From the NCBI GenBank assembly GCA_044892505.1, contig CM097883.1:42346001-42410000 (forward strand): a stretch of DNA of 64,000 nucleotides, in the 5' to 3' direction. The notes beneath the pieces are model-generated. The model was given only the letters and a program-made list of their open reading frames with translations, did not search any database and had not been told where the DNA came from. The translations under genes were made by a program, and so were the position numbers. The first letter of the stretch is position 1; each line of letters opens with the position of its first letter. This document shows, piece after piece, positions 9,135 through 46,712 of this stretch. The stretch comes from Schmidtea nova (Eukaryota).

Positions 9135-9160
9135 AACTCCATTTCGATTTCTTGATTGTC

Positions 9161-16939: not shown

Positions 16940-17036
16940 ATAATACATGAAATCCGGAAAAACCTTTGCTAAAATTTAAAATGCATGATTTGATTGATAA
17001 CATATAAATGGGTCATCCTGAAACCTTTTTTCATTG

Positions 17037-25960: not shown

Positions 25961-27186
25961 TGTTGGATGATCGAGGGAAGCCCATCCAAGCATTTACCCT
26001 GAACAAATATTACAGGACAGGGCCTAATCGATACATGGTTAATATATATGCAGAAACCCAGTCCGAAAATAATGCAGACTCCATCTTCAATCGCCTCAAA
26101 TAATCACCCTTCTTCAATCAAAGCTAACAGAGCCTAAAATAATCACCCTTCTTCAATCAAAGCTAACAGAGCCTAAAATAATCACCCTTCTTCAATCAAA
26201 GCCAACAAAGCCTCAAATAATCACTATATGACTATGTTTATGTGATCACAACTTTATTATCTAATATACTTTTAAATTTTGTATATGAGTGTCATTATTC
26301 TGTATTTGAAGTGTATATAATTATTCTGTACTTGAATTTCATAATTATTCCGTATATTATCATTTGAATTTTATGTATATTTGTGTAAAAATCTATAAGG
26401 TAATATATCTGTATATGACAGTGCATGAGATGTGAAGTAATAATATATTAAAAAGGGCAAATTGTAGATAATAAATTTTTAATAAAAAATAATAATTTTA
26501 GATAATAATATATTAAAAAGGGCAAATTGTAGATAATAAATTTTAGATATTTATTTAATAAAAAAATAATAATTTTAGATAACGACAAATTGTAAAACGA
26601 CAAGATGTAAATTCTAGATATTATTCTAGATATTGAGCCAGATAAAATAAACAAAATCCGGTTAAAAAGACCGATTGAAATATAAATATTTTAAATAAAT
26701 ATAATTATATGATGGTTAAAAAGACCGATTGAAATATAAATATTTTAATATAATGATTGTCGAACAAGATAAAAATTTACTATATAAGCTGATGGAAAAA
26801 TCAGAAAAAAGGCCCAAAAAATTTCATAGCTTTAAAATCTAATTTTAAACTAAAGAATTAAAATCTGCGCAATATCGAGTTTTCAAGGAAATCTTGAAAA
26901 ACTTATTAAAACCCGGATCAGAAACATTGGATCCACAAATAAAATATAGCACGCACTACATAGCAGTCACCCAATAGGTTCAATTACAAGAATTGATTTG
27001 ACACGACTTTTTCTTTTTTAAAAAAATTGTGTAATAAAGAATTTGAGTTATTAATTGTAAACGGAATAAAAAGTAATTTTATTGTATTAATAAAATTTTG
27101 AAACAAACTTTGTTTTTGATATTTATATACGAATCACCCCAATAACGAGTTGAGATTGCAAATAGCAAATATTTGGAACCTCAACA
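25961..27186 (+). repeat. 5' LTR
   Basis: Matches 38727-39952 (one mismatch seen by eye, 27120 T vs 39886 C); internal 38-bp x3 repeat at ~26098-26222; AATAAA at ~27064. Confidence 0.97.
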
Positions 27187-27188
27187 TT

Positions 27189-27206
27189 TGGTGCCGCGAA
27201 CCGGGA
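27189..27206 (+). promoter_or_regulatory. Primer-binding site TGGTGCCGCGAACCGGGA, probably tRNA-Phe
   Basis: 2 nt after the LTR; has the shape TGG-T-acceptor stem-T arm of metazoan tRNA-Phe (15/18 match to TGGTGCCGAAACCCGGGA). Confidence 0.7.
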
Positions 27207-27435
27207 CAATAAAATATCATAATATCAATTGGGGGATAGGAATTGCGATCAGAGGGATATTGTAATATATATCGGGAAAATATATTTATATAAATATTAT
27301 TGACCAAAACAGAAATTCGAAAATATACAAACATATAAGGTTAACAATAACAAAATAGGTAAAAAGATAAAGAAAGTTATTATAGATAAGCCACCTGAAA
27401 TATTACACAAGTTAAGAAATAAGGTAATATACAAA

Positions 27436-30400
27436 ATGAGTAATAATAGTACAGGCAGCAATAATAGTGGAAGTAACTGCAATACAGACAACATCAACAG
27501 TAATCATAATTTTATAAAAACACTACCAATAGAATCATATAAAGGAGACCCTGAAAAGTTCGACGACTTTTTTGTCGAAATCGCACAATATGCAGAGGCT
27601 TGCGGATGGAAAACAAATGAATTAAAACAACGAATTCCATTATATTTAAAAGGATATGCATTACAAGCATACAATAATTTAGCATGTAAAGGCATTAATT
27701 ATCAAGAGTTAGTTACAAACCTTAGAAAAGAAATAGTAATAGATAGAGACTTACAAAAAATAAATGTTCAAAAATTTAGAAGTAGATACCAAGGAGCAAG
27801 AGAATCAGTAGGTGAATATATATACACGATAACAGAATTAGCAAAAAAGGCATTTGGTGCAGAAGATCACACTAGTAGGTTAATCGAGGATCAGTTTTGG
27901 AACGGAATCCAAAAATATTTATACAAAGCATTAATTACGATTGAATATGAAGACTTAAATGAATTAGTACAAAAAGCAAAACGCATCGAAGCAATACAAA
28001 GAGATCGATTTAGACCAGAGATAGACGCTGTAGAAATTGAAAAGCAACTTGAGGTAAAACCTGAGTTGAAAAATAAAGATGATAGTATCCCTTGGGAAGA
28101 AATGAAACAATTATATTTGAATTTTGTTAATAATAGAAGAAAATTTAGTCCTAATAGAAGCCAATCACCTGAAAACAAGGGAAGGTTTAACAGTTCAGGA
28201 AATAAAAATTTTGATAATAGAAATAGAGATAATTTTAAAGATAACTATAAAGGGAATAATAATAGAGATAGTTTTAGAGACAATCGTTCTGGTTATAACA
28301 GTTACAGTGGATATAATAGAAATAATAGAGATAGTCGCTTCGAATATAATAGAAGAGATAATAGATATAGAGATAATTCGAGAAATAGACAAGATAGCCC
28401 AGTGAGGCGAAATAATAATGAGGGTAGGGATAAAGTGAATTTTAATGGACAAATAAAATGTTACAATTGCCAAAAGTATGGTCACCTAGCAAAGGTATGT
28501 AATAAACCACGAGCAGATTCACCGATAAGAGTAAGATTTAAAAATGAGCCTGAGATAAAGCAGGTAAATAGCGCTGAGCTTGAATCAGCAAATAACGAAA
28601 TAAACATATTAAGAGAAGAATTAAAAGAATTTAAAACGCAATATGGAAGACTTATTGAGAGAAAGCTTGAAATGTCTATAAATGAATTTAGTACTTTTAC
28701 AAATGAAGTAGATATCGATAATGATGAGTTAAAAGAAATTAGAGAAGCAGATGAAATATTTCTCACAGAAGAAAATAAACAAAAAGAATTGATAGAAGAA
28801 TTTAAAGAGATATTGTATAAACAACCATTTGATGATAACGAAACACTGAGAATAATCAATAAAATACAAGTCAATGGGATTGAATTAGACAAGCTTAGAA
28901 ATTTGATACCAATGATGGTAAAGAGGCAAAATATAACGAAAATATTTGAATTAGAAATAGAAATAAAAGAGATGTTAAAATGTTATGGAGAATATATAAG
29001 AAAAAATGAAAGACTGCATGAAACACTAAAGGTAACGATTGAATCAAACGATAACTACTTTTCCAGAAACAAACAAAGGGTACATCCTTGCACTAAAGTG
29101 AGCAAATTAAAACGAATGGTAAGAGCCAAATGGCCAGGAACCATAGGAGAGAAAGATGTAATAAAATTATATTTTAACGGAATAGAATTATTGAGTGACG
29201 AGTATTTAATCGATTATGGGATAAACCCAGTAAGTGATAATATTGTGGTAGCCACAATAGAAAAACGAATGGTCGATGAGATAGTGACGCCAGTACCGTC
29301 GGTTGAATTGAGTATAAATGAAGAAAACGATTTTGATAGATTATTTAGGCTATGGGATAAATCACCTAGCGAAACAAAGAAATCAGCAAGGGATGAAGAA
29401 ATTATATTTAAACCTATAGATAAAAAATATAGTAACTTACAAGAAACAATAGAAAGAATAGCTGACGAAGCAAAAACAAAAGATGCAGAAACATCAAAAC
29501 GAGGTAGAGGAAGACCTCGAAAATCAGAAATAATAGAAAAATCGGACAATAGAAAAACAGCGGAACGATTAAAAGAAATCGCAAACAAACAAAGACATGA
29601 AACACTAGAATACCAAGATGACAACAACGACATAAATAAAATAAAAGAAATAATAAAAGTCATGAATATTAAGCTATTTCCAGAAACAAGACCAACGGTA
29701 CTCATAGAAAACATAACAGAAAAAATGAAACTAATTAAAAAAGATACCAAAAGACTAGCCACAGAAGAAGCAGATGAAAAAACAGTATTAAAGATCCTGT
29801 TTAATACAGGGATAGATAAAGATAGAATAATAACGGCCATGGCATACTTGGCTGCAAGATACAAAAAAATTATAAAGGAAAATCTAAAAGGACAATTAGA
29901 CAACGTGGTAACGATGATGTATAAAAAATTGAAGGTAGAAGCAATACCCTGGATAAAAATGAAAGGAGGATGGAAAATATTATATGATGAGGATACGACA
30001 AACAAAGAAAGTGATACAGATAAAGTAATAAAACAATTAATAGAGAAAACAACAATAAAACCAAAAACAGAAAACAAATCGATAACCTCCACAGTAATAG
30101 TAATAATAACATTATTATTAGATTTAATTAAGGGTAGCAATGCAATAATAGCATATGATTGTCAAAACCCAAAATGGGGACAAAAATATTCATTGTTGGA
30201 TGTCGAAAATTGCCCAGAAGCAAATCCAACTAAATTAATCATGTCAGAGCCTCAAATGTTTCATGTTTATCAAGAATCAGATTTTATTCATACGGAAGCT
30301 AAAGAGTGCATCATAAAGTATCAGGAGGAAGCATATATATGCCATGCTGGGGCAAGAACAGTTTTAAAACCCACATGGACACCAGAAGCAGTAATATTAT

Positions 30401-30840
30401 CACCAATGGAGTGTGAGGAGGCATTTAAAACAAAGAAAGCTAAATATAGCGGTCACAAAGGAATCGAGCTAGAAGCAAGAATAGGAGCAAAGATGAGACA
30501 GGACGTAAATATTGTAGGATGGACATCAAAAGGGGGTTATTGTGAAGGAGGAGAGTATACCGTATGGGGTGAAAAACTCAGTAATGTTGTAGTAAGAAGG
30601 CACTACATGGTAGAACTAAGAAAATTCAAGGCATCATTTGACAGCAGCTCAAAGAAAATGATGATATACAAATTTTGTACATTAGAAGAATCATATTGCG
30701 ATACAGGAGAATCAATGCTAATATATAAAATAGATAAATACGATTGCCAATTAACAAAATTAAAATCATTAAAATTTAGAGAGATCAAAGGGAAACAGTT
30801 CACAGATGTAGACTCAAAAAGAGTGAGAGATCAAAAATGA
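27436..30840 (+). CDS. Polyprotein part 1 (1134 aa): Gag capsid, CCHC knuckle, ubiquitin-like domain, AT-hook, signal peptide, N-terminal half of fusion glycoprotein
   Basis: Retrotransposon Gag motifs (PLYLKGYA, RYQGARESVGEY), CYNCQKYGHLAKVC (28459-28500), RGRGRPRK, hydrophobic VIVIITLLLDLIKGSNA followed by IIAYDC...YSLLDVENC. Confidence 0.9.
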   Translation: MSNNSTGSNNSGSNCNTDNINSNHNFIKTLPIESYKGDPEKFDDFFVEIAQYAEACGWKTNELKQRIPLYLKGYALQAYNNLACKGINYQELVTNLRKEIVIDRDLQKINVQKFRSRYQGARESVGEYIYTITELAKKAFGAEDHTSRLIEDQFWNGIQKYLYKALITIEYEDLNELVQKAKRIEAIQRDRFRPEIDAVEIEKQLEVKPELKNKDDSIPWEEMKQLYLNFVNNRRKFSPNRSQSPENKGRFNSSGNKNFDNRNRDNFKDNYKGNNNRDSFRDNRSGYNSYSGYNRNNRDSRFEYNRRDNRYRDNSRNRQDSPVRRNNNEGRDKVNFNGQIKCYNCQKYGHLAKVCNKPRADSPIRVRFKNEPEIKQVNSAELESANNEINILREELKEFKTQYGRLIERKLEMSINEFSTFTNEVDIDNDELKEIREADEIFLTEENKQKELIEEFKEILYKQPFDDNETLRIINKIQVNGIELDKLRNLIPMMVKRQNITKIFELEIEIKEMLKCYGEYIRKNERLHETLKVTIESNDNYFSRNKQRVHPCTKVSKLKRMVRAKWPGTIGEKDVIKLYFNGIELLSDEYLIDYGINPVSDNIVVATIEKRMVDEIVTPVPSVELSINEENDFDRLFRLWDKSPSETKKSARDEEIIFKPIDKKYSNLQETIERIADEAKTKDAETSKRGRGRPRKSEIIEKSDNRKTAERLKEIANKQRHETLEYQDDNNDINKIKEIIKVMNIKLFPETRPTVLIENITEKMKLIKKDTKRLATEEADEKTVLKILFNTGIDKDRIITAMAYLAARYKKIIKENLKGQLDNVVTMMYKKLKVEAIPWIKMKGGWKILYDEDTTNKESDTDKVIKQLIEKTTIKPKTENKSITSTVIVIITLLLDLIKGSNAIIAYDCQNPKWGQKYSLLDVENCPEANPTKLIMSEPQMFHVYQESDFIHTEAKECIIKYQEEAYICHAGARTVLKPTWTPEAVILSPMECEEAFKTKKAKYSGHKGIELEARIGAKMRQDVNIVGWTSKGGYCEGGEYTVWGEKLSNVVVRRHYMVELRKFKASFDSSSKKMMIYKFCTLEESYCDTGESMLIYKIDKYDCQLTKLKSLKFREIKGKQFTDVDSKRVRDQK

Positions 30841-30882
30841 AAAACAACAATTGTACAAGAAAAAGATACACCAACAATATAT

Positions 30883-33800
30883 ATGTCAGAATCTGAAAAC
30901 GAAGCAATGAGGTTCGTTAGAAAAAGGAAAAGTGTAAAATGTGGTAAGGAAATAATACAAACTAATTATGAAGGGATATACATAAGTAGAGAAGAAGTCA
31001 AAGATGCAAAACAAAAAGTAAATAAATTCGACGTCAAACTCGCATCATATTTCAACAATAAAATAGATTTTTTCTATCATAATCAACTATTGCAATTAGA
31101 TAAAGTATATCAATCAACAATCATGAGCGATTGCAAACTCAACAGAGAAATATTAAGGACAAAAATGGCAGTCGCGGTAACAAACCCAGATTTGATGGCA
31201 CCAATAATCTTCTCAGAAGAAGGAACATTTGCCAGGATAGTAGGAGAAGTGATACAGACATTTCAATGCAAACCTGTTAGTGTATCATTGGCAACAAACA
31301 ATCAGTGCACAAATGAGTTACCAGTAATATACAAAGGAGAAAGGGTATACCTTCAACCAATTACTAGAATACTAACAGAAAAAACATATGTACCAAGAAA
31401 AATAGAAAAATGCACTAATTTATTAGATCCATTATACAAAATAAATGACGAAATGTGGATATCTATGTCAGATAGGAAAGAGGCGATGAAACCACTCAAA
31501 TTAGAACTCATAGAGCTTGAAAAAAGATTGGAGTTTAAAGAAATCAACGATATGGATAGCAATGGCATATATACGAGAGAAGCTATAGAAAGTGCAAGAA
31601 AACACATGTTATTCCCAAACGAAAAAGAAAGAATACTGTCAATAATGGTAAACAAAGTTATCGAAGGAAGTTACGGAGGAAATTACAATTTTGACGTGTT
31701 GTTATCAAAAGAATATTTCAAAAAAGTAGCATATAAAGTATTATATAGTATATGGGGATATTTTGCAGTCCTTGGAAACATGTTCTCTACAATTTTGGGA
31801 ATTTACTATACGGTTGCTTTACTAAAAATGGTTTGTTCTTCTTTAGTATCACTACGACAGCTGAAACAAGTATTCGGAAATTCATATAAATTACTAGCAT
31901 GTTTATTCCCGTTTGTAGCCAAATACCTGATTACGGCAAAACATGATAAAGAAATACGTTTAATAAAAATCCAAAGGAATGAAGAAAGGCAAATATTGAT
32001 AGATGATGAAAACAATGAGGAAATAGTTAAAACGCATATATCACATGAAGGAAATGCACCACAACAAGGACTATACAAAAACCAAAGAGAACAATTAAAA
32101 GAGTTACAAGAAAATATAGAGATTAAAATTCCTAGAGAAAGTAAGAATTGTTACTGTGAACCCAAAAAAATATATGGTTGTTATAGCTTGGAAGTCGAAA
32201 TGATGGAGCAATTAGAGACAGCAAACGAAGCAAGGCCAAGACTTAAAATAATTATAAACAATATAATCATAAATGCACTAGTAGATACTGGAGCAGCAAC
32301 GTCCCTGATTAGGGAAGATCAACTTACAGATGGTCAAAAGAGAAATATTATGAAAACAATGGATAAAGTAGTAACACTATCAGCACACTACATTCCACTA
32401 AAAGGAGATATTGAATTAGTAGTTGAAACATCAGAACAAGTAATACACCACATATTTAAAGTAGTACAAGAATGCAATAGCATATGTATACTAGGGATCG
32501 ATATACTCAACAAGCTGAATAACTGCATCATAGACTTAACGGATAACACGATTAAAAGAAAAGCTATCAAACATAAGTCCAAGTTCACGGAAGTTGTTGC
32601 ATTAGAAGCATTCGAATTAGAATATGAGTGTGATCATATAATCCCCATAAAAGTTAACGTCAAAAGTGAGGACACTTTTATTTTCGAGCCAGAAACGGCA
32701 ATTACACAAAATATAATGTTAACTAATGAATGCGTAATTCCAAAAAAGGGAATAATCCCATTAAGAATAGCGAATTATGAAAAAAGTAATATAAAAATAC
32801 ACAAAGGCACAAAATTGGGAAAACTATTCAAAGGCAAATTTGAGAAAACGTATGAAGTCAGCGAGACAAGTGTGATAAATGATAACGGCAAAAGAGTGGT
32901 CGAACCTAGTAAGACAAATAGTATAAAATCATACGACAAAGTGAAAATCAATAATAAATACCTAACAATAACACAACAAGCACAATTACAGACACTAATA
33001 GATGAATACAGCGATGTTTTTGCAAAACATGAATTTGATTTAGGAGATACTGACATAATCAAACATGTAATAGATACGGGCAATGCAAGACCAATAAAAC
33101 AAAGACCATATAGCGTACCATATAAACTAAGAGAAGAGATAAAGCGACAAATTAAAGAATTAAAAGACGCAGGTGTAATAAAACAAAGTTTTTCACAGTG
33201 GGCATCACCCATTGTACCCGTCAAAAAGAAAGACGGAGAAATAAGAATGTGCATTGACTATCGTAAATTAAATGATGTAACAGTAAAAGATTCATATCCA
33301 TTCCCAAAAGCACAAGAGCAATATGATAAACTTAGGGATGCTAAGTATTTTTCAGTCATTGATGCGAATAAGGGGTATATGCAAATTCAAATGGAAGAAG
33401 GGGATGCAGAGAAAACAGCATTTGTTATTGAGGATGGTTTATATGAGTACACACGATTACCCTTCGGATTAACTAATGCGCCAGCCACATTTCAACGTCT
33501 AATGAACACAATATTAGTAAATGTACAACACTGCGCAGTTTACATGGATGACATATTAATATCATCAATGACATTCGAGGAACATCTAAAAGATATAACA
33601 AACGTACTTGAGAGACTAAGAAAAGCAAGGATAAAAATTAAACCAACCAAATGTAAATGGGCAGAGTCTTCGGCACTATTTTTAGGGCATATAGTCACAG
33701 TAGAAGGGATAAAACCAAATCCAGAAAATATAGAAGTTGTAAAGAAATTCCCAATACCAAAAACAGTACAACAAGTACAAGGGTTTTTAGGTTTAACAGG

Positions 33801-36480
33801 ATACTATCGTAAATTCATACAAGATTATGCAAAGATAGCAACACCTATAATAGAACTAACAAAGGGAATTAAAACAAAAGGAGAATGCAAAGACGTGTTA
33901 ATAGTACAAGAAATTAACAATAAAGTTAACAAGATACAAAAGAAATGGACAAAAGAACATCAAGAAGCATTCGACAAACTAAAAGAAAGATTGATAACAG
34001 CATCAGTGTTAAGATACCCAAATTTCGAAAAACAATTTATAGTAATGACGGATGCCAGAGGGAAAGCCGTAGGAGCAGTATTGGGCCAAGAAGAAGAGAA
34101 AGGGAAAGATTACGTAATAGCATATGCCAGTAAAACATTAAAAGGAGCACAGCTGAGGTATTCAACAATAGAAAAAGAATGTTACGCAATAGTATTTGCC
34201 CTAAAACAATTCAAACCATACATCTACGGAACTGAAGTGATAATAAGAACAGACCATAAACCATTAGAAGGCTTATGGAAACATAAAGATACATCAAGTA
34301 GATTACTTAAATGGGCAATGAAAATACAAGACATGCACCTAAAAATTATATATAAACCAGGTAGAATAAATAAAAACGCAGATGCACTATCAAGAATACC
34401 AGAATTAGGAGCACTTGAAATATTTGCACTAGTAGCAGAAAAGCCAATAGATATATATGAGGAACAGATGAAAGACCCAGAGATCAATAAAATAAGGAAT
34501 GAAATCAGAAAAGAAAACAATTCAAAATATCAAATATCAAAGAAATTAGTAGTAATAGAAGATTTCAACGGTAAGCAATTAATAGTAGTACCTCAGAAAT
34601 TAAGACAAATACTCCTACTACAATATCACGATGGAGCATTAGGAGGTCACTTATCATCTAGAAAGACAGCAAGTAGATTATTACAAAAATATTACTGGGA
34701 AGAATTAAAGAAAGATGTTAAGAGATGGTGTAACGCGTGTACAATATGTGCAACAAGAAAAAATACAGGTACAAAAACAAAAGCGCCGTTACACCCCATT
34801 CCAGCAACAACATCACCAATGGAACTATGTGCAATGGATTTTCTATGTAAATTACCTACTACAATTAATGGGAATAAACATATACTAGTATTTAGTGATT
34901 ATTTTACTAGATGGGCAGAAGCATTTCCAACAAAAGACGAAACAGCAGAAACAGTTGCTAAATTGCTTATAGAAAAAATTATTTTCAAGATAGGCACACC
35001 CAAAAGATTATTAACAGATAAAGGAACAAATTTTACTAGTGAATTAATAAAACGAGTAGCTAATATTTTTAACATGCAAAAGATCAACACAACAGCGTAT
35101 CACCCTCAAACTGATGGACTAGTAGAAAGATTTAATGGGACATTACTAAGCAGACTAGCTGTTTTTGTAGGAAAAAATCAAAATGATTGGGACGAATACA
35201 TAAGTCAATGCACATACATTCATAATATCACTCCAAACGAAACAACAGGGTATTCGCCGTATTATTTAATGTTTTTAAGAGAACCAGCAACACCAATAGA
35301 TACAATATTTGAACCTCGAGTATCACAATATTTAGATGCACCAGATTATGTCACACTAATGCAGGAAAAACTGCAAGAAGTGTATAAAGTAGCCAATCTA
35401 AAAGTCAAATATAGACAAGAACAATACAAAGCCGACTACGACAAAAATAGTAAACCACACAACTTTAAAGTAGGCGATAAGGTTAGACTTATGTCACCAC
35501 AAGTAGGAAAGGGAAAGACAACAAAATTAGCAAGACCATATAAAGGTCCATATGAAGTAGTAAAAGTAATAAATGAGAATTTACATTTACAAAAGCATAA
35601 AAACGAGGATCCAATAGTAGTACATGTCAACAGATGCAAGTTGGCGGAAGCCGAGGTCACGATAGATAAACCTCACAAGTATAATCTAAGATCTCATAAC
35701 AAACTAATAATATCGGCTATCTTCTTAACAATCATAACAATTGTTGGCTCAACCAAAACAATAGAATTCGACAGAGTATTAATAAAAATATCAACAAACG
35801 AAGTTAGAGCATTTATCATAAATAGAGGAGTAATTGATTTATACATGCAAACAACGAATGGGAAAAACCCAAAGATGATAAAAGGAAAGGACGACAGAAC
35901 AACCAACGAAATCGAAAGAGGAAACTATATTAATTTCACAAAACTAACACCTAATACAATATATAGAATCTGCATACAGAGAAACACAGATACAACAACA
36001 TGGAGATGCAAAAAGATAAAAACAGAACAATTACCCAAGGATATAATAAAAAATCAAAACATAACACCCGATAGAATAAAAAGCACAACAACGAAATCAA
36101 ATAATAGACTAAATACCACACTACATACAAACGAAATACCAACAAGCACTGGAATAGCCAAACTCCAAAAACAATACAATGCCAAAAAACAAAAACAAGA
36201 ACCTATCAAAATAAGGCAAGGAAGACCAATAGTGATACATAACTTAGAGGAACTACAAGCATTTCGTAAAAAAGATAAAAATCCACATTGGCCTTTTTAT
36301 GTCATCACAACATCAATAATAGCATTAGCAGTTTTAGCTTTAATAACTAGCGTACAAATTTATAAAAAGTACAAATGGAAAAGGCAGCGGTATCGGAGCC
36401 AACTGGTCAGAAATGTACCAGGGCATTTCCATTTGGATAAATATATACCAGGTGAATATTCGAGGTCCACATTGGTATAA
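30883..36480 (+). CDS. Polyprotein part 2 (1865 aa, same frame as part 1): glycoprotein C-terminal half with TMs, PR, RT, RNase H, IN, FN3-like/TM module
   Basis: GEVIQTFQC..V.V...C.NELPV...LQPITRIL glycoprotein motifs; DTG 32284; YMDD 33541; TDA/EKEC/RTDHKPL; HHCC, MDF, TD.GTNF, ERFN, GPY; C-terminal signal peptide, FN3-like domain and TM. Confidence 0.93.
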   Translation: MSESENEAMRFVRKRKSVKCGKEIIQTNYEGIYISREEVKDAKQKVNKFDVKLASYFNNKIDFFYHNQLLQLDKVYQSTIMSDCKLNREILRTKMAVAVTNPDLMAPIIFSEEGTFARIVGEVIQTFQCKPVSVSLATNNQCTNELPVIYKGERVYLQPITRILTEKTYVPRKIEKCTNLLDPLYKINDEMWISMSDRKEAMKPLKLELIELEKRLEFKEINDMDSNGIYTREAIESARKHMLFPNEKERILSIMVNKVIEGSYGGNYNFDVLLSKEYFKKVAYKVLYSIWGYFAVLGNMFSTILGIYYTVALLKMVCSSLVSLRQLKQVFGNSYKLLACLFPFVAKYLITAKHDKEIRLIKIQRNEERQILIDDENNEEIVKTHISHEGNAPQQGLYKNQREQLKELQENIEIKIPRESKNCYCEPKKIYGCYSLEVEMMEQLETANEARPRLKIIINNIIINALVDTGAATSLIREDQLTDGQKRNIMKTMDKVVTLSAHYIPLKGDIELVVETSEQVIHHIFKVVQECNSICILGIDILNKLNNCIIDLTDNTIKRKAIKHKSKFTEVVALEAFELEYECDHIIPIKVNVKSEDTFIFEPETAITQNIMLTNECVIPKKGIIPLRIANYEKSNIKIHKGTKLGKLFKGKFEKTYEVSETSVINDNGKRVVEPSKTNSIKSYDKVKINNKYLTITQQAQLQTLIDEYSDVFAKHEFDLGDTDIIKHVIDTGNARPIKQRPYSVPYKLREEIKRQIKELKDAGVIKQSFSQWASPIVPVKKKDGEIRMCIDYRKLNDVTVKDSYPFPKAQEQYDKLRDAKYFSVIDANKGYMQIQMEEGDAEKTAFVIEDGLYEYTRLPFGLTNAPATFQRLMNTILVNVQHCAVYMDDILISSMTFEEHLKDITNVLERLRKARIKIKPTKCKWAESSALFLGHIVTVEGIKPNPENIEVVKKFPIPKTVQQVQGFLGLTGYYRKFIQDYAKIATPIIELTKGIKTKGECKDVLIVQEINNKVNKIQKKWTKEHQEAFDKLKERLITASVLRYPNFEKQFIVMTDARGKAVGAVLGQEEEKGKDYVIAYASKTLKGAQLRYSTIEKECYAIVFALKQFKPYIYGTEVIIRTDHKPLEGLWKHKDTSSRLLKWAMKIQDMHLKIIYKPGRINKNADALSRIPELGALEIFALVAEKPIDIYEEQMKDPEINKIRNEIRKENNSKYQISKKLVVIEDFNGKQLIVVPQKLRQILLLQYHDGALGGHLSSRKTASRLLQKYYWEELKKDVKRWCNACTICATRKNTGTKTKAPLHPIPATTSPMELCAMDFLCKLPTTINGNKHILVFSDYFTRWAEAFPTKDETAETVAKLLIEKIIFKIGTPKRLLTDKGTNFTSELIKRVANIFNMQKINTTAYHPQTDGLVERFNGTLLSRLAVFVGKNQNDWDEYISQCTYIHNITPNETTGYSPYYLMFLREPATPIDTIFEPRVSQYLDAPDYVTLMQEKLQEVYKVANLKVKYRQEQYKADYDKNSKPHNFKVGDKVRLMSPQVGKGKTTKLARPYKGPYEVVKVINENLHLQKHKNEDPIVVHVNRCKLAEAEVTIDKPHKYNLRSHNKLIISAIFLTIITIVGSTKTIEFDRVLIKISTNEVRAFIINRGVIDLYMQTTNGKNPKMIKGKDDRTTNEIERGNYINFTKLTPNTIYRICIQRNTDTTTWRCKKIKTEQLPKDIIKNQNITPDRIKSTTTKSNNRLNTTLHTNEIPTSTGIAKLQKQYNAKKQKQEPIKIRQGRPIVIHNLEELQAFRKKDKNPHWPFYVITTSIIALAVLALITSVQIYKKYKWKRQRYRSQLVRNVPGHFHLDKYIPGEYSRSTLV

Positions 36481-36769
36481 GTTAAATTGGTCAATAATAT
36501 ATATTAAAATCACATATATCTGTATCTATAAAATAGCGTATAAGGTTAAACCTGAAATACGCTCTCAACATAAAAATTTACATTTTATTTTTAGAAAAAC
36601 AAGTCACCCATTTGACAAACAACCCAATAAAGCCAGTTTTACATCAAATCCTCAGCACAATCAAAACAATAAAACCAACTCCCAATCAAATCGTTCCAAT
36701 TTTCAATCCAATCACAAATCAAGTCGTAAAATCATATCTCGATCTCATTATCAATCTATATTCTTAGTG

Positions 36770-36905
36770 TTTTATCGTTTACTAACTTATCAATCAATAT
36801 CCCGATTCTTAGTGTTTTATTGTTTGTTAACTTATCAATCAATATCCCGATTCTTAGTGTTCTATTGTTTACTAACTTATCAATCAATATCCCGATTCTT
36901 GTGTC
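36770..36905. repeat. 42-bp tandem repeat x~3.3 between pol and ORF3
   Basis: ttcttagtgttttatcgtttactaacttatcaatcaatatcccga repeated; ends just before ATG 36917. Confidence 0.9.
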
Positions 36906-36916
36906 TTCAATTAACA

Positions 36917-38869
36917 ATGCAATCAGAGCCAAATTATTCTCGATCTATGAACTATGTGGCTATGATCAACAAACACCCTCTAAACTTTTACAAAACCCTA
37001 CAAAACAAAATATGTACCGATGGAAATCCAATCACAATCAGAAGCTTCCCAAACCAAGTATGCATCCCAAATGATATGAAAGTGGAAATTGAAGAAAGAG
37101 AACTACACATTATCAAATTTAATGAAGCTCGACGAACAAAACTAAAAGACCTAATCGGCACATTTGAAAAACATCTTAATGTCGACAAAGCGGTAATCGA
37201 AGGAAAAAAGGTACCACATAGAATCCTATTCCACATGACAAAAACCGAGGTATCAATTTGCCAACATAAAGTACCAATAATCACAACAAGTAATTGTTCA
37301 ATCATCATCAAAACAATTACAAACAACAGAAGTATGCCAGACGATTTTAATCACCTCATAATCCAAATGAACAACTTACCGTGTGTCATAGGAATCGAGA
37401 TACTCTATATCCCTCTGATATCAAATCCATTCCAATCAATGCCGCCAATCCCTTCAAAACCTTGGTACGATCAAAGCTGGATAAATGAAAAAATCTCTTT
37501 CACACACAATGAATTATCCACAGAAGAGAGACACCAACTAATTATGTTCATGGATGCAAAATTTGCAATTGATAAAAATGACAACAAGCGACCAGTAGAA
37601 GTATGTATAAGAAAGTACAACGGTGAAATTATATACAACAAAAAGATAACCCCAAGAACGAAGATAAAAAACTTCTGCACAGAAAAAACAATGATTAATA
37701 AAGAAAGTATCGTCGGAAATGAAGATGAGTACCAGGCGCTATTGGATATCAGAAAGCTGTTGTGGGGAAAAATAATCATAGGATTTGACATGATAGATAA
37801 ATTAAAAATGCTAACATTTGGTCTAGACAACATTGCAGGAATGAGAGAAATGGCCGGAGATAAATTTATGTGCTCATTCGTGAAAAACGTGGATCCACTC
37901 AAAATTAAGCTATCCAATTTAGCTTACCAAGTGATTAAATACCATAAGAGATGGTACAAAGATAAGAGACTGAATGAAGCATTAGTAGAAAGTGAGCCAT
38001 TTTCTGCCAGAAAGACAACAACAATATTAAAGGTAATATATGGAATAGTAGAAGACAAATGGGAACCTATAATAAAATGGAATTCAGCAGCTTCAACATC
38101 GTTACAAAGTGATACACCAATAACAGACGATATCGAAATGAAAGGAGACCTATACCAGATGCAAAACAGAAAATCATGTATGGAAGAGTTGAAGGAAAGC
38201 GAAGAAGAAAGTATAATAATGGATGAAAATTCAGATATGGAAGAAACAATACATGAAGATAGTGATGATGACCTAATGATTACAAAAGAAGAAGGACCAC
38301 CAGAAAATCAAATAATGATTAAAAACGAACCGCAACTAATACAAAAATACAAAGAAAGAGAAGACATATGCGATTTAGATTCGGACGAAGAGTATTTTTC
38401 AGTTGAGGAAAACGACGAAGAAGACTTCACAAAAGAAATGGAGAGTAAAATAAAAGCAGAAGACGAATTAGGACCAGAACCAGGCATTGAAATGGAAATA
38501 GAAGAGGAGGAAGAACCTAGCTTCATTATAGGTGCCGACCAAAAAGAGATAACGGAAAAACAATTATGTACCCATTTCGGAAGACGAATTGAGGAAGATG
38601 ATACCCTAAATCTTGCAATCAAGAAAGGATTCAAGAGAACAGTAATGAAATTAAAGGATAAAGAAATTGAAATGGTCCTGAGCGAAAAAGGTAATGAGGA
38701 CATTACTTTGACGGCCCTGGGAGGAATGTTGGATGATCGAGGGAAGCCCATCCAAGCATTTACCCTGAACAAATATTACAGGACAGGGCCTAATCGATAC
38801 ATGGTTAATATATATGCAGAAACCCAGTCCGAAAATAATGCAGACTCCATCTTCAATCGCCTCAAATAA
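36917..38869 (+). CDS. ORF3 (~650 aa from ATG 36917; open from 36413): REX4/ISG20-like DEDDh exonuclease fold with altered catalytic motifs and an acidic tail
   Basis: IMFMDAKF...GEIIYNKKITPRTKIKNFCTEKTMI...LLWGKIIIGFDM follows the REX4 pattern VA+DCE...G.V+YD..V.P...V.D.RT..SGI...L.G+ILVGH; the last 47 codons lie in the 3' LTR. Confidence 0.75.
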   Translation: MQSEPNYSRSMNYVAMINKHPLNFYKTLQNKICTDGNPITIRSFPNQVCIPNDMKVEIEERELHIIKFNEARRTKLKDLIGTFEKHLNVDKAVIEGKKVPHRILFHMTKTEVSICQHKVPIITTSNCSIIIKTITNNRSMPDDFNHLIIQMNNLPCVIGIEILYIPLISNPFQSMPPIPSKPWYDQSWINEKISFTHNELSTEERHQLIMFMDAKFAIDKNDNKRPVEVCIRKYNGEIIYNKKITPRTKIKNFCTEKTMINKESIVGNEDEYQALLDIRKLLWGKIIIGFDMIDKLKMLTFGLDNIAGMREMAGDKFMCSFVKNVDPLKIKLSNLAYQVIKYHKRWYKDKRLNEALVESEPFSARKTTTILKVIYGIVEDKWEPIIKWNSAASTSLQSDTPITDDIEMKGDLYQMQNRKSCMEELKESEEESIIMDENSDMEETIHEDSDDDLMITKEEGPPENQIMIKNEPQLIQKYKEREDICDLDSDEEYFSVEENDEEDFTKEMESKIKAEDELGPEPGIEMEIEEEEEPSFIIGADQKEITEKQLCTHFGRRIEEDDTLNLAIKKGFKRTVMKLKDKEIEMVLSEKGNEDITLTALGGMLDDRGKPIQAFTLNKYYRTGPNRYMVNIYAETQSENNADSIFNRLK

Positions 38870-39952
38870 TCACCCTTCTTCAATCAAAGCTAACAGAGCC
38901 TAAAATAATCACCCTTCTTCAATCAAAGCTAACAGAGCCTAAAATAATCACCCTTCTTCAATCAAAGCCAACAAAGCCTCAAATAATCACTATATGACTA
39001 TGTTTATGTGATCACAACTTTATTATCTAATATACTTTTAAATTTTGTATATGAGTGTCATTATTCTGTATTTGAAGTGTATATAATTATTCTGTACTTG
39101 AATTTCATAATTATTCCGTATATTATCATTTGAATTTTATGTATATTTGTGTAAAAATCTATAAGGTAATATATCTGTATATGACAGTGCATGAGATGTG
39201 AAGTAATAATATATTAAAAAGGGCAAATTGTAGATAATAAATTTTTAATAAAAAATAATAATTTTAGATAATAATATATTAAAAAGGGCAAATTGTAGAT
39301 AATAAATTTTAGATATTTATTTAATAAAAAAATAATAATTTTAGATAACGACAAATTGTAAAACGACAAGATGTAAATTCTAGATATTATTCTAGATATT
39401 GAGCCAGATAAAATAAACAAAATCCGGTTAAAAAGACCGATTGAAATATAAATATTTTAAATAAATATAATTATATGATGGTTAAAAAGACCGATTGAAA
39501 TATAAATATTTTAATATAATGATTGTCGAACAAGATAAAAATTTACTATATAAGCTGATGGAAAAATCAGAAAAAAGGCCCAAAAAATTTCATAGCTTTA
39601 AAATCTAATTTTAAACTAAAGAATTAAAATCTGCGCAATATCGAGTTTTCAAGGAAATCTTGAAAAACTTATTAAAACCCGGATCAGAAACATTGGATCC
39701 ACAAATAAAATATAGCACGCACTACATAGCAGTCACCCAATAGGTTCAATTACAAGAATTGATTTGACACGACTTTTTCTTTTTTAAAAAAATTGTGTAA
39801 TAAAGAATTTGAGTTATTAATTGTAAACGGAATAAAAAGTAATTTTATTGTATTAATAAAATTTTGAAACAAACTTTGTTTTTGACATTTATATACGAAT
39901 CACCCCAATAACGAGTTGAGATTGCAAATAGCAAATATTTGGAACCTCAACA
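38727..39952 (+). repeat. 3' LTR
   Basis: See 5' LTR. Confidence 0.97.
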
Positions 39953-40939
39953 CTGAGGAACCTGCAGTTTAAAACTGACATTGCAACTCTTACGTTTTGA
40001 CAACCTGAAATAGAGTTGTATGTTGGTGGGCTACATGACAGAAGAAATAGGTCCATTTTATCTTTCTTTTTTGGATTGGTTTTTGAAGGAATATTTCTGT
40101 CATGGATTTCCAAAAAATATATTGCTCAAAAAACTTTGAAATATGATATTGTGATTAAAGCACAATAGTTAAACCTAAATATTATTAGAAATTTCTTTTT
40201 TTACCATTTTATAATAAGAATTTATAACAATTAAATTTGAACTTGTTTCCATCATCTAATACATGAAAACAAAGTTGTACTCTGTTAATAATATCTTTTC
40301 TGTGATGGTTTAAGAGACTGAAACTTGATGTTTATAATACTTGGCTAGTGATAATACCTGGTCGATTATTATATTCTTACTCTGACTGAATACACAACTG
40401 AAATACACACTTGATAAAGGCTGTGCCGAAATATTGTGTACTTGTTTAAAAATAAACTTTTGATTTATAGGCTTATGTAAATTATTGATATTAATATTAA
40501 ACAAGGATCAAAGGTTAAACAAAAAGATAATTATGATTTAATTTTCTATCAAACATTACAAAGAAATTTACGAAGTTAAAATAAAATTTTATTTAAAACT
40601 CGATATTACGAATCACAATCTTCATCTATTTTTCTTAATCCGTGCGCATTCTTTATTATAGAAAGAGGAAGAGATAAAAAAAGGTTTTAAAATCAATTAT
40701 GATACACGTTTTAGTTTTCTGTAATTATTCACATGATTCTGACTGCAAAACACTAATGTAAATATGTGAATGTATTAAACACTGTTGACCATTTATAAAA
40801 ATGATTTTCATGAAGACTTTTAAACCTTGCAACTGTATCTCAATGAAAAAAATGGTTTGAGGATGACCCATTTATATGTTATCAATCAAATCATGCATTT
40901 TAAATTTTAGCAAAGGTTTTTCCGGATTTCATGTATTAT

Positions 40940-42190
40940 TCATTGCAACCGTTTATGAGAGGTGCTAGAAACGTCAGAGATTACTAAGCGAGGCGCATGT
41001 CTCTCTTCGTCTAAGAATTTGTCCCATAGCGCCAACTCAATATAACTAGTCGTATACTGGCCACAATTCGACACCATGGATTGTAGAATCATAATCCCAT
41101 CATGTTTCAAAAACTCCTCACTGAATCTTCTAACAAGGTTCAAATCATTCAACTCTCCGTGAGCTCGAAGATTCAGTGAAGCCTTGACGAATGATTCTCG
41201 CCTCGAACTCGTATTGAGGAGCATCGATAGAACATTCAGCGCATTCACCAGTGCTACAAACATCATCCAAATAGATAAAAGGATAAACATATTTCCCCAT
41301 AGCATGTTGATCGGTAGAACGCATTCCAATTCATAATGATTGATCATCGCTTGATCGGCAATCGGCATCACTGCATAAGCCATTTTTGGAAATCGCGGAA
41401 TCGCATTCGCATATTCTCGGTCAACAATGAAGTTCCTGATAGACACAAAATACTCCTCGGCATTGGCATAACCGACAAATCTCGCCATTCCAATTACAAT
41501 GGTACAACTGACAAGCAAATACAGGGTGGCGACTACCAGATAAGTCCATGATAGAATTGTTCCGTTTCTTCTTGAAGGAACGAGAAGTGGACAGCAGGAT
41601 CTATGAACCATCCTTTTAACCGATGACAGCCAGCCGATTCTTTTCATTCTTCTCTCTGATGTGAACATAATTTTCATTTTGTCTGCGATTTCTGAGATTG
41701 ATTCCTCCGAAACCGCCCCAACTTTCCTTGCCAGAGATCGCGCTTTGATCAAACTGTTCTGTAAGTCTATGTCAACCGCCTTCCTTGTGACATATGATAA
41801 AACGGCATGCGGTAAATACAGTAAAATTGCCGCCAGTGATAAATAAAAAGGCGTCCAAATGTAATAATCTAACGAGAAATTGTCCAATGATTGTGAATTG
41901 GCCGCTCCATCGTTATTCGGTATCTTGCTGTATTTCGAGTTGATCCATCCGTATTCCTTTGCGAATTTATCGAAGTCTTTGCCAGATGTAGCGATTGGGG
42001 TGTAACATTCGATGGGAGAGCTCCAATAAACCTTGGCAGCTATGATAAGAATTGATAAAAGGAAAAGCTTACAAGACACAGACCAATTGAGCCTGTCAAT
42101 CGCTCCTTCAAGTTCAATCGTGCTCTCTTTGGGTTTTTTGGTCAGATCAAAAAATGACTTGGTAATCATTTGAATGATGAAAGAAGCCAT
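40940..42190 (-). CDS. inx: Innexin, 416 aa, intronless, copy 2 (4 aa differences from copy 1)
   Basis: Inverted duplicate 40841-42440 of 15439-17036; differences PNK>PNN, FPR>FPK, YIV>YIE, DVP>DVS. Confidence 0.93.
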   Translation of the reverse strand: MASFIIQMITKSFFDLTKKPKESTIELEGAIDRLNWSVSCKLFLLSILIIAAKVYWSSPIECYTPIATSGKDFDKFAKEYGWINSKYSKIPNNDGAANSQSLDNFSLDYYIWTPFYLSLAAILLYLPHAVLSYVTRKAVDIDLQNSLIKARSLARKVGAVSEESISEIADKMKIMFTSERRMKRIGWLSSVKRMVHRSCCPLLVPSRRNGTILSWTYLVVATLYLLVSCTIVIGMARFVGYANAEEYFVSIRNFIVDREYANAIPRFPKMAYAVMPIADQAMINHYELECVLPINMLWGNMFILLSIWMMFVALVNALNVLSMLLNTSSRRESFVKASLNLRAHGELNDLNLVRRFSEEFLKHDGIMILQSMVSNCGQYTTSYIELALWDKFLDEERHAPRLVISDVSSTSHKRLQ

Positions 42191-43799
42191 TGAGCATGCC
42201 TATATATGAAATATTCTTGCTGAATGACGCAATATAATAATGAGGATAATTCTTGATAAATATTTACGGAATTTTGTAATTCCATGAAACTTGTTTCTGA
42301 GATTTTCTTAATTCATTTTCCGGCTTATAATCAAGTTTTCTTAAACATTTTTCATTCTTGACCCTTTTCTCGTTTTGGCGGTCCATTTTATATCTAGCAC
42401 TGTTAATAAATCATTTAATAGTTAACCCTCGATTACGGTCGCTTGGATGTTTTGAATCAGCGGTGCTTTAGTAATACCATATTTTTCATTTTATGTGTAT
42501 GTGAAATTTTTGTTGTTTTATTCAACTAATGTCTATCATAAATAATAAGACAAACACTGGTTTGAGGAATATTTATTAAATAACATAATTTTATACACAT
42601 AAAAAATATTTACCGTGACCAAATAATTAAAAAGATTTTATATAGTTTTTTTATATTATGTGTTCTTTGATTTATAACCCTAATTATAGTTACATGAGCT
42701 CAGTTATGTAATCTGTATGCTCAAAATTTGGCTTGCTGAGTCAAGTTCTTAATGTGAAGCTCTTCGTAAGTAAAGATTTTATGGGTTGATCTGACTGAAA
42801 AATCAGTCACTTTATATATTAATTTTTAAAGCACTTAATCTGCCAATAACTTGTTATTGTTCCACGCAAGTTTATTAAAAGTGATATTGTTTTCATAAAA
42901 GAATTGTTTTTAACCTTGGAATTGTGAATATAATTTTATTTTGTTGACCTTTGCAGATCCTAACTATAATTTATTTAAACAAAATGTAAAATTTTATTTT
43001 ATTATTTATTTTAGTTTTATTATTATTATTTATTTCTTCGAAATAAAATATTAAAGTAATTTCAAAAATATAAAATAAAATAGTAATCATTTTCTAAATA
43101 ATTTTAAAATAAAATTAATTAACAAAACTACTTTTTCAAAATCATCTAAAATATTTTTTAGTTTTCTAAATTTACAGTTTCACAAAATAAAATGCAATAC
43201 AAATTCGAATCATTAATAATTTGTTGAACAATTGCCTGCCTTCATCGTTATCATGTTTAGTCCATTTCTTTACGTTAACATTTACATTTACTTTGTACGT
43301 AATTGTCCCATATCTAACATGTTTAAAATAAGTATTAAAATTAGATATTAAATAAAAATTAGTTAAATGTTAAAGGTTCATTCATTAAAAGCAAAGAAAG
43401 TTTATGCTGTGTGTCCAACACCCTGTGACTTTAATCACGTTTTAAAGTACACGGCCGTATTGAAGCGTTTAAAGCAGAACTATTTTTTATCACTCTCATG
43501 GAATGGTCAATGCGAGATAATGAATAAAATTATATTCTTCATAGAATGTAATTTGAACAAAATGGATTGGGAAAATATTTTAAAAACGGCAATTTGTCCC
43601 GTTGAGCACTCCTCTGTTTATCAACAAGGTATATTTCATATAATTAAATTTTCAACTTCCAAAGAATAAAAATAATACGTTACGGTCTTAAGGATACTTT
43701 CAAAATAACAATCAAGAAATATTCGTTTTCTGATTTTATTTATTTAGTGCTTACAATTATAATGATGGGTATAATAATGGTTGTTTTCGAAATGCTTTA

Positions 43800-45140
43800 A
43801 CTTGTAAAACACAATCAAACAAAAGAAAAATTAAAAATGGAAGAAATCAGTAGAAGAAGCAAATTATGCTAAAATTATTAAAGAGAAAAAAGAAATCGTA
43901 CAGAAAAAATCAGCATGATTGAAGAAAACCTGAAAATTCCGAATTTGGCAAGGACGGGGAAGGAAGAAATGAGGATATGTATGATGAAACTCTCGGAGTT
44001 ACTGGTGAAAAAAGAAGGAAAAAAGTTGGGAAATACATTTTTTCAAGGGAAAAGTCGAAATTTTGGAATATTATGGGACAATATGGAGAATCATGAAAAA
44101 TAACTCATTCTGAAAAATTTCGAAGGACATTTGGCACAAGAAAATGAGAGCGCCTAATGGAGTCGTCTGGCTAGTTTTGAAATATCGAGGGGAAACTGTA
44201 ATAATTCCGACAATTTGAGAAGCATTTCAAATGAAGAAGAGAATAATTTGATGCCAATAACAGAGGATATGCTAAAACACAGAAACTCGTTCTTATGGGA
44301 AAAAATGTTGAGTGAGGAAATCAGGAAAAACATCGTGTTTATGGACGCGAAGTTTGGAAAAAATGAGGAAAACAGGATGATTGCATTGTCCATTTGCCTA
44401 ATAGATTATACAGGGGAAATATTATACAACTCCTTGATAACCCACAAGAGAGACTAAATATTTATGCTACGCAGATAAAATGGAATTACCGAGATGTCAT
44501 GAAATCAAGAGGATCAGAACGAGAACATGGAGGAAATACACCAGCTAACAGAATGAAAAATTTTAGTGGGTCATGATCTGCAAAGTGAATTATTGTACAG
44601 TTAAGTACTACCAAGTGATTTGTGGGGAATTCGAGATTTGGCAGCAGCTTGTGCATTAATATGCAGAAGGGAAATCATTCCACTTTAGAAGACACTGATG
44701 CAATCAGAAGAGTTTATTTATACATTGAGAATGATTGGCAAGATCATATAAATTGTGCTGAGAGGGTAGCCAAAACATAATGTTCATTGAAAGACAACAG
44801 AAAAAGGAAAGCTGTATCAACAGGTGACGAACCTGGCGAACCGAGAGAGAAAAGGGACATAAAGAATCAAACAATGAAGCAAAATATGGAAACAGCAGAA
44901 GAGATTCGAGTGGTTATGGGGCAAAGGGCGTAGTTGACAACGGAAAATGAACTAAATGTGGCATTGAGTAACAACATTCGAGTGAAAAAAAGACCTTAAA
45001 ACGGAAACCCAAAAAAAGAAAAAGGAACTCAAACAGTGAATGAAGGAGTCGCTGTCAAGAAATTAATAACGATCGATGGAGAGAAATTGGAGCTCACCAA
45101 AGTTGTGGTAACCTATAAAAAGAGAAAACAAACAGAAAAA
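43800..45140 (+). pseudogene. Decayed, diverged homolog of the Gypsy ORF3 exonuclease
   Basis: IVFMDAKF (44341), GEILYNSLIT, KILVGHDL (~44557-44580), GIRDLAA across frameshifts. Confidence 0.7.
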
Positions 45141-46712
45141 GTTGATATAAATAAATAAAAGTATTTAGTTATTATTAACAGCTGTTTTGATTTGTGCATC
45201 CCAGGGTTTTCATAAAAATGCAAAATGTATTAAAAGATCAAAAAGATATAAAATAAAATAATAATAAATGTAATGGTAATAGAACAAAGGCAATTATTTT
45301 ACCCTGGATTCAAAATAATAGGAAGAATAATTGTAAAATACATACAATGATTTAAAATAATTTATAAAAATTTATAAATAAAAATTAAATTATACTAAGA
45401 ATTCCAATACTAATAAGTATGTAGTACAAACCTTATGGGAGTGACTCAGAACAATAGAGATATGTATATGTTTATAATTATTAATAATAATAAAATAATA
45501 AAATAAAGGCAAATATAAAACTTAAAATTCAAAAAAAAATTAATAATATATCTTGAGAATTCCAAATGTCGAACTTCGATATTCGGATTTCTCAGGATAA
45601 ATTACCCTGCTCACCTGCAACACTGGCGCAACCGGTGAGCAGGATAATTTAAAAATGACATTAATTTTATTTTTAGAAAAAGCAAAATATAATGGGGTCG
45701 TAAAAAAAGTAATAATTATCATAAAACTTTTATNNNNNNNNNNNNNNNNNNNNNNNNNNNNNNNNNNNNNNNNNNNNNNNNNNNNNNNNNNNNNNNNNNN
45801 NNNNNNNNNNNNNNNNNNNNNNNNNNNNNNNNNNNNNNNNNNNNNNNNNNNNNNNNNNNNNNNNNNNNNNNNNNNNNNNNNNNNNNNNNNNNNNNNNNNN
45901 NNNNNNNNNNNNNNNNNNNNNNNNNNNNNNNNNNNNNNNNNNNNNNNNNNNNNNNNNNNNNNNNNNNNNNNNNNNNNNNNNNNNNNNNNNNNNNNNNNNN
46001 NNNNNNNNNNNNNNNNNNNNNNNNNNNNNNNNNNNNNNNNNNNNNNNNNNNNNNNNNNNNNNNNNNNNNNNNNNNNNNNNNNNNNNNNNNNNNNNNNNNN
46101 NNNNNNNNNNNNNNNNNNNNNNNNNNNNNNNNNNNNNNNNNNNNNNNNNNNNNNNNNNNNNNNNNNNNNNNNNNNNNNNNNNNNNNNNNNNNNACAAGTT
46201 TGTCTTTTTACAGGTACAGATAAGATATTCAGCATGGAATATTACAACAACAATCATATGTTAAAAAACTGCTGCATCTTTTCGTGGATCTGATATTTCA
46301 TTGGAATTCATTATCCAGCTTTGCGACATTTTTCAGTTGAATTCAGCTTTCTAAAATATAAATGGTTTCGTCGCAGAATGTTTTATTTCGAAAATTACCT
46401 TTAACTACTTGAATTGCCAGTTCAAAAGAGGGTTAATATTTACATACTTTTATAGTTAAAACAAATGTATTTTACAAAACTTTATAATAATTTAAATTTG
46501 TTTAATTAATACTATTTAATATTTATTTACACAAAGTTTGGGAGAAACCCATTGGTATGAAAGTACCAAATTCTAGCTGAATGTGCAATATTACTTATTG
46601 CACAATCTTTCAATAGTGTTTTAATTCTTTTCTCTTGGACCCCCATATTTAATAAAAGATCTATTGTTTTAGGTTCGAATGATCCCAAGGAGCCAATTAT
46701 ACAAGTAAACAA

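Follow-up and report, generated by a model that had tools for sequence, protein, structure and literature searches.

Enzyme folds encoded by accessory genes have been described in several kinds of mobile elements. The Juno and Vesta LTR elements of bdelloid rotifers, together with the Terminons, carry a DEDD-fold ORF3 placed after pol in a Ty3/gypsy setting, and this protein is RNase D-like, of the DEDDy type, with an intact DEED set (PMC5408684). KolobokD, an animal transposon, has a DEDDh exonuclease as accessory nuclease, but it is a DNA transposon, and its enzyme is exuperantia/TREX/ERI1-like, not ISG20/REX4 (PMC9587614). An orchid Ty3/gypsy element carries an accessory 2-ODD ORF of the AlkB type, which is reported to be close to AlkB demethylases and active in vitro (PMC9289625). 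The Burro elements are planarian (PMC6431247), and the related GAG-ENV-POL errantiviruses have been reported in nematodes, bryozoans and flatworms (PMC13524379). Folds of this kind are also kept after catalysis is lost: the same bdelloid account lists Maelstrom and EXD1 as inactive DEDD derivatives retaining RNA binding (PMC5408684), and the poxvirus proteins C10, C4, A37, F11 and A51 are presented as inactivated, exapted prolyl-hydroxylase folds (10.1101/2022.11.22.517515). DEDDy nucleases in LTR elements, the KolobokD DEDDh enzyme, an active orchid AlkB and GAG-ENV-POL elements are already published. To our knowledge, few anti-silencing or RNA-protecting proteins from animal retrotransposons are known. 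Here we analyze a retroelement protein of the planarian Schmidtea nova in which two of these folds, both lacking their canonical active sites, are predicted to be joined. Within the openly licensed PMC and bioRxiv texts, the scope of our search, neither an accessory ORF with a beta-helix and an ISG20-type domain nor repeated inactivation of one was found.

The DNA analyzed, hereafter the window, comprises 64,000 nucleotides of contig CM097883.1 (assembly GCA_044892505.1, positions 42,346,001 to 42,410,000). It contains a Ty3/gypsy LTR element of 13,992 bp on the forward strand (25961-39952), bounded by a 5' LTR (25961..27186, TG...CA) and a 3' LTR (38727..39952) of 1226 bp each and flanked by CTGA target-site copies, 5' of the 5' LTR at 25957-25960 and 3' of the 3' LTR at 39953-39956. 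A primer-binding-site-like sequence that starts with TGG, as read from the sequence, lies 2 nt after the 5' LTR (27189..27206, +), and the polypurine tract occupies 38719-38726 (+); with protease, reverse transcriptase, RNase H and integrase in this order, the element has the full set of Ty3/gypsy hallmarks. The LTRs are mismatched at only 1 of 1226 positions, so the insertion is very recent and the element is young.

ORF1 (27436..30840, +) encodes Gag with a CCHC knuckle, a Bcl-2-like domain and the first part of a mononegavirus-type fusion glycoprotein (Pfam: PF00098, E 4.6e-4, and PF00452, E 9.1e-5, both below cut-off; PF24664, profile 4-207, E 3e-19). ORF2 (30841..36480, +) continues in the same frame with the remainder of the glycoprotein (PF24664, profile 241-648, E 6e-70), RVP, RVT_1, RT_RNaseH, Integrase_H2C2 and rve matches, and a C-terminal part. 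The two frames are separated by an in-frame TGA at 30838-30840, which ends ORF1, splits the glycoprotein between PF24664 profile positions 207 and 241 and also divides gag from pol; it may be a lesion, a sequencing error or a site of regulated readthrough. Because this stop lies in env, the present copy may be non-autonomous. We also observed that the Bcl-2-like domain sits just before the glycoprotein at aa 826-890 of ORF1 (window 27304-30837, +; E 9e-5, below cut-off) and that a weak AT-hook lies at aa 732-741. After the integrase, ORF2 runs on for about 260 aa (35701-36477, +), in which two hydrophobic segments are separated by about 195 aa; Pfam gave no match to this region, which seems to resemble an additional membrane protein forming the C-terminus of Pol.

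A fusion glycoprotein in frame between Gag, with its Bcl-2-like domain, and the protease is the defining layout of GAG-ENV-POL elements, and on this sequence organization the host element is of the GAG-ENV-POL (Burro-like) type of Ty3/gypsy. Burro elements and GAG-ENV-POL errantiviruses have Gag, a Bcl-2-like domain, a mononegavirus-type glycoprotein and PR-RT-RH-IN in one frame, as here (PMC6431247; PMC13524379), and by eye the glycoprotein resembles the ENV of a Schmidtea element in the supplement of PMC13524379. However, our element measures 14 kb versus more than 30 kb for these flatworm elements and yielded no BIR, MATH or ankyrin matches. In the sections of PMC6431247 and PMC13524379 drawn on here, no exonuclease ORF is reported for such elements.

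Several other features were noted in the rest of the window. An inverted duplicate (15439-17036 and 40841-42440, 99.4% identical) flanks the element on either side, each copy bearing an intron-free innexin ORF of 416 aa (PF00876, E 3e-42), and it may reflect recent duplication or an assembly effect. An ORF of 1435 aa at 46713-51020 (-) combines a Ulp1-type protease with a reverse transcriptase and marks a protease-carrying non-LTR element, a putative member of the NeSL family. Two further gypsy-like elements with broken pol (6770-10457 and 60200-63963, both -), each bounded by short direct repeats, are similar to the pol of the host element by tblastx. There are also a mariner-type transposase fragment (18614-19096, +; PF01359), a nuclease-like ORF fragment (17381-17953, +) and a tandem satellite in which a 120-bp unit is repeated some 15 times (530-2404).

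The accessory gene, ORF3 (36917..38869, +), stands alone between pol and the 3' LTR and encodes an open frame of 650 aa. Searched as a whole, it had no match in Pfam, NCBIfam or PADLOC; Rfam and ARAGORN returned no match either. Upstream of 36917 its frame continues without a stop for 570 nt, back to 36347, and thereby overlaps the final 134 nt of pol, which is read in a different frame; an earlier ATG lies at 36413, while 36917 is the only ATG from 36481 to 36920. Among dinucleotide shuffles of 36482-36760, 46-55 of 20,000 were stop-free, and Pfam found no match on 36347-36916 (+). In 42 of 43 family rows, a conserved proline is found at a distance of 22-112 aa from the N-terminus; in ORF3 it falls at residue 51 when counted from the ATG at 36917 versus 219 from that at 36413, which is outside the family's range, and the latter start is therefore disfavoured. 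A longer form begun at 36413, or one produced by frameshift from pol, may exist, but the N-termini of family sequences favour 36917.

Immediately upstream, a 45-bp tandem repeat of about 3.5 copies (36760..36900, +) carries putative acceptor sites at which an ORF3 mRNA could be spliced or trans-spliced. TACTAAC is a branch-point consensus; the repeat contains this branch-point-like heptamer at 36780 and 36870 and acceptor-like TTCTTAG ends with AG at 36766, 36811 and 36856. On both strands of the window, 36780 is the sole site where TACTAAC is followed by a pyrimidine-rich AG within 12-32 nt, although a looser form of the TACTAAC/acceptor motif occurs 50 times. This arrangement suggests that the ORF3 mRNA may be spliced or trans-spliced at the repeat; against this, no splice donor of the form GT[AG]AG was found in 25961-28000.

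Four regions could be delimited in the protein. A double-stranded beta-helix domain of a prolyl-4-hydroxylase/AlkB/cupin-like fold is predicted by AlphaFold2 at aa ~6-170 (36932..37426, +), and alignment and structure comparison place an ISG20/REX4-type DEDDh fold at aa ~193-386 (37493..38074, +). They are followed by an acidic linker predicted to be disordered (aa ~395-545; 38099..38551, +), which has a net charge of -41 and pLDDT below 50 across aa 396-521, and by a C-terminal part with low-confidence beta strands in the AlphaFold2 model (aa 546-650; 38552..38869, +). The last part has no Pfam match above cut-off and crosses the polypurine tract and 143 nt of the 3' LTR, which encodes its last 47 codons and the stop. 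The earlier note on this DNA spoke of a long acidic tail; the acidic stretch is indeed present, but it is a linker and not terminal, as some 105 aa follow it. The N-terminal beta-helix domain had been missed.

Sequence searches with ORF3 by phmmer gave ISG20L2 (E 0.0012) and ISG20 (E 0.0013), and the ESM Atlas assigned it to an RNase_T cluster with a score of 0.95. The signal became much stronger with a profile of the ORF3 family (ISG20L2, E 1.5e-33; ISG20, E 9.7e-22; SDN1, E 3.1e-17), and hhalign to P0074, a REX4-like protein, reached a probability of 99.3. In the AlphaFold2 model, computed from a 68-row alignment with pLDDT mostly above 85 over aa 21-380, the domain superposed on human ISG20 (1wlj) with a VIA Z of 17.9 and an rmsd of 2.2 over 160 aligned residues (next row, 14.5); Foldseek likewise put human ISG20 first (E 1.7e-7). 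By modeled fold and homology, aa 193-386 belong to the ISG20/REX4 branch of the DEDDh exonuclease superfamily, as the earlier note had recognized from the sequence. Among known proteins, ISG20, ISG20L2 and REX4-type enzymes (PF00929; 1wlj, 7yw5) and SDN1 (5z9x) are the best profile and structure matches and share both the fold and the motif spacing. The bdelloid case, which had been offered as precedent, holds in that DEDD ORFs do occur in LTR elements, but the enzymes described there are of another subfamily, DEDDy with catalytic residues intact (PMC5408684). In the ORF3 family an ExoIII histidine is found and DEDDh structures match first, and the published description thus sets the bdelloid ORF3 apart from this DEDDh, dead, two-domain protein.

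The five catalytic positions, namely the D and E of ExoI, the acid of ExoII and the H and D of ExoIII, were mapped through the family and the REX4-like match. ORF3 reads D213, K215, K295, F362 and T367, so only D213 is canonical and the D-x-E, D, H, D set is absent. The mapping bore out the claims that ExoI reads MDAKF (aa 212-216) and that the ExoII and ExoIII residues are altered, and the loss is larger than the D-x-K of the earlier note's title implied. Two metal-binding positions of the pocket are replaced by lysines. In addition, 12 residues are inserted before ExoIII relative to most family rows, and other acidic residues occur within the domain (D270, E271, D291 and D294); no alternative conserved Cys/His set was seen. 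Set against ISG20/REX4-type enzymes, ORF3 is missing four of five catalytic residues and has a beta-helix domain and an acidic linker as fusion partners.

For the N-terminal domain, prolyl 4-hydroxylases were the best VIA matches of the full model (2jij, Z 12.1; 5c5t, Z 11.7). When the domain was folded alone from a 47-row alignment (mean pLDDT 79.6), the same structures came out (2jij, Z 10.8, rmsd 3.4, 153 aligned; 5c5t, Z 10.5), with AlkB-family rows at Z 8-9.3 and small cupins at Z 8.5. A viral fold search returned AlkB-like domains weakly (best E 3.9e-4) and, also weakly, proteins of LSDV (E 0.006) and molluscum contagiosum (E 0.012). The models are clear as to the class, a double-stranded beta-helix of the 2OG-oxygenase-like type, and pick out no closest subfamily. 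At the sequence level the domain had no match in Pfam, PDB sequences or the Atlas (aa 10-175). Since aa 1-170 contain no H-x-D/E and the family has a single conserved histidine column (H106, 40 of 47 rows), the H-x-D/E...H iron triad is absent, and an active AlkB demethylase was rejected as a candidate. The orchid element likewise has a 2OG-fold accessory ORF in a gypsy context, whereas its enzyme is reported as active (PMC9289625) and the ORF3 domain lacks H-x-D/E and any sequence-level match. The conserved residues of the domain are Y25, P51, N52, K55, H106 and E161, and all except Y25 are noted as kept in catalytically dead and intact family members alike.

A full HMMER scan with aa 193-390 collected 74 proteins at E up to 0.001. 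We dropped an unrelated repeat protein (P0056) and four judged to be host-type (P0045, P0072, P0074 and P0075), which left 69 relatives at 50% clustering in addition to ORF3. With an E cut-off of 0.01, PF00929 was recognized in 36 of 73 scanned proteins; a reverse transcriptase or integrase domain was seen in none of the 73. An alignable N-terminal part is present in 47 family rows, and a profile built without ORF3 gave its N-terminus 39.5 bits, whereas the highest score among 200 shuffles was 7.3; by these alignments, family members share the beta-helix domain whether their nuclease is dead or intact. Of 40 long tails, 26 contain an acidic patch, defined as a net charge of -10 or beyond within 50 aa, the strongest being that of ORF3. 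In individual members, a RING finger forms the end of P0071, and the linker of P0063 is a long acidic repeat. Within a set of these two and P0010, P0021, P0057, P0064, P0069, P0070 and P0073, a short beta-rich terminal segment looks alike by eye in several members, with weak support from pairwise searches.

ExoIII histidine is found in 38 of 74 rows. Catalytic scoring used the 54 rows complete at all five sites and left out 16 incomplete ones: the D-E-D/E-H-D set is intact in 35 and degenerate in 19, of which 13 keep none of the five residues, 5 keep one and 1 keeps two. The replacements vary across dead lineages (SKQIE, ASFLE, VGILM, NDTNR, ARQTE). Other positions are held: across 29 rows classed as degenerate, P246, R247, D270 and G289 are 97% conserved and G308 and R310 100%. 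The mean net charge of the exonuclease domain is +3.2 in dead versus +0.3 in intact members with overlapping ranges, and this sequence difference lends little support to a better RNA-binding surface in the dead ones.

The nearest relatives, P0002 and P0003, which were also the only hits of a word-based search with the family alignment, share 62% and 57% of the nuclease domain with ORF3 and have exactly its five catalytic-site residues; the dead site is therefore not the decay of one copy. Among the three sequences 83 of 181 columns are invariant, and the naive chance that five given sites are invariant is about 0.02. Identity among them is 57-67% in the folded domains, 27% in the inter-domain linker and 36-46% in the acidic part. 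Both relatives are chimeric gene models fused to unrelated genes and known without genomic context; the alignment of P0003 runs across the peptide encoded by the polypurine tract and LTR start, which suggests that it comes from a related element. The supposition that ORF3 is a pseudo-nuclease within an LTR element thus holds on the fold, the motif mapping and the altered state conserved in relatives.

The window also holds a decayed member of the family that is not part of the host element (43918..45158, +; tblastn), with 58% identity to P0054 (E 3e-43) and 27% to ORF3 (E 2.7e-7), many stops and a frame change near 44655. By sequence it derives from a catalytically intact branch, nearest P0054, and it keeps ExoII and ExoIII but has D-x-K at ExoI. 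Lysine at the ExoI Glu position can thus arise without selection, and since host-type P0075 reads D-x-K too, this motif, which the earlier note took as one sign of a pseudo-nuclease, is present in ORF3 as K215 but is not diagnostic alone. An assembly gap (45734-46193) lies 3' of the decayed member, and no pol was seen beside it in the window.

How often the active site was lost depends on the columns used. A tree with the catalytic columns (64 rows) united 24 degenerate rows in one clade with an SH-aLRT of 99, but this clade dissolved when 20 motif columns were masked or the N-terminal domain was used alone. The combined-domain tree, built from 330 columns of the 42 rows in which both domains are present and no motif call is missing (without P0003, P0071 and P0073), needs four state changes, two of which are forced by well-supported branches. 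With catalytic columns masked, a single degenerate clade (13 degenerate versus 29 rows) was rejected by the AU test (p=0.0004). This test was chosen after the FastTree result and used a quick search over long branches, that of ORF3 included, and recombination between the domains may play a part; on the masked and N-terminal trees and this test, the single dead clade was set aside. The safe statement from these alignments is that the catalytic set was lost independently at least twice, assuming no regain.

Taken together, we somewhat favour the reading that ORF3 is a maintained non-catalytic accessory factor, binding RNA or a partner and derived from an active exoribonuclease. Under such a model, ORF3 would descend from an accessory gene for an active 3'-5' exoribonuclease and would be expressed from a separate subgenomic RNA, with the acceptor-like repeats serving for splicing or trans-splicing. 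With lysines at two metal-binding positions, the dead pocket could hold RNA 3' ends uncut. The beta-helix domain, in which dead and intact members do not differ at the conserved residues, could bind a host or element partner. The element would probably benefit because its RNA is protected or because a host pathway of RNA decay or small RNAs is dampened. A benefit through RNA binding is proposed because other dead DEDD proteins act in this way, and by this analogy the dead fold may bind RNA without cutting it. Those pseudo-enzymes keep their fold after catalytic loss, as ORF3 does, but have independent origins, and the two folds are not combined in the accounts cited above (PMC5408684; 10.1101/2022.11.22.517515). 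Antagonism of host RNA surveillance or piRNA trimming, which the earlier note had raised, is plausible.

The alternative that survives best, possible though in our judgment unlikely, is that the beta-helix is the working part, a protein-binding pseudo-dioxygenase, and that the exonuclease fold is only its structural partner without any RNA role. The unchanged beta-helix residues in dead members agree with it, as do the wide variation of pocket replacements between lineages, expected if the pocket were free, and the weak LSDV and molluscum contagiosum matches. However, the three close relatives conserve the exonuclease domain and the beta-helix part equally well, and the conserved positions of the former include the basic, non-catalytic R247 and R310. 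Continued cleavage of nucleic acid by ORF3, with an altered active site or one contributed by a partner, is distinctly less probable. All three close relatives retain D213, the domain contains D270, E271, D291 and D294, and Maelstrom-type proteins show that DEDD folds can change their chemistry (10.1101/2021.02.01.429129); yet four of five canonical residues are replaced, two of them by lysine, no alternative conserved Cys/His set accompanies them, and D270 precedes a helix start and may be structural.

Slightly more improbable again is that ORF3 is a decaying passenger, which lost catalysis and persists only owing to the youth of the element or to the polypurine tract and LTR sequence that its 3' end shares. 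In a very young insertion the frame would be open with or without selection; the recent insertion and the stop in env would suit decay, and variation of the bdelloid env and GDSL ORF3 within genomes is described as mostly neutral (PMC5408684). But in relatives diverged by about 40% the domain is still an open frame and retains both its fold residues and the same dead-site residues, the truly decaying copy in the window looks different with its many stops, and the LTR overlap covers the last 47 codons only. Least probable of all is that the family consists of host genes from which the element recently picked up one dead member: the relatives are known without context, none of the 73 scanned has a reverse transcriptase or integrase domain and no pol lies beside the decayed copy at 43.9-45.2 kb in the window, but P0003 runs through the polypurine-tract/LTR-encoded peptide as ORF3 does, the 13 matches that show contigs are long ORFs on contigs of 1.3-4 kb, the extreme diversity of 69 clusters at 50% suits mobile elements, and the two-domain architecture is absent from host-type P0074 and P0075.

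To return to the maintained accessory factor, the family would supply a natural pair of active and dead accessory nucleases, in which catalysis and binding could be compared without engineering, and its beta-helix is an unannotated domain. The retroelement appears to reuse two enzyme folds much as large DNA viruses reuse inactivated host enzymes, and planarian RNAi and small-RNA tools make the function of ORF3 directly testable. A bolder and doubtful extension, which we put forward as speculation, is that ORF3 typifies a widespread accessory family of retroelements with a dead 2OG fold and an ISG20-like exonuclease, whose intact members would destroy host small RNAs or RNA triggers, and in which several lineages would independently have made 3'-end-binding decoys that shield the element RNA from the piRNA or decay machinery. 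If true, this would mean that a double pseudo-enzyme encoded by the element acts in counter-defence, in animals whose stem cells are under piRNA control.
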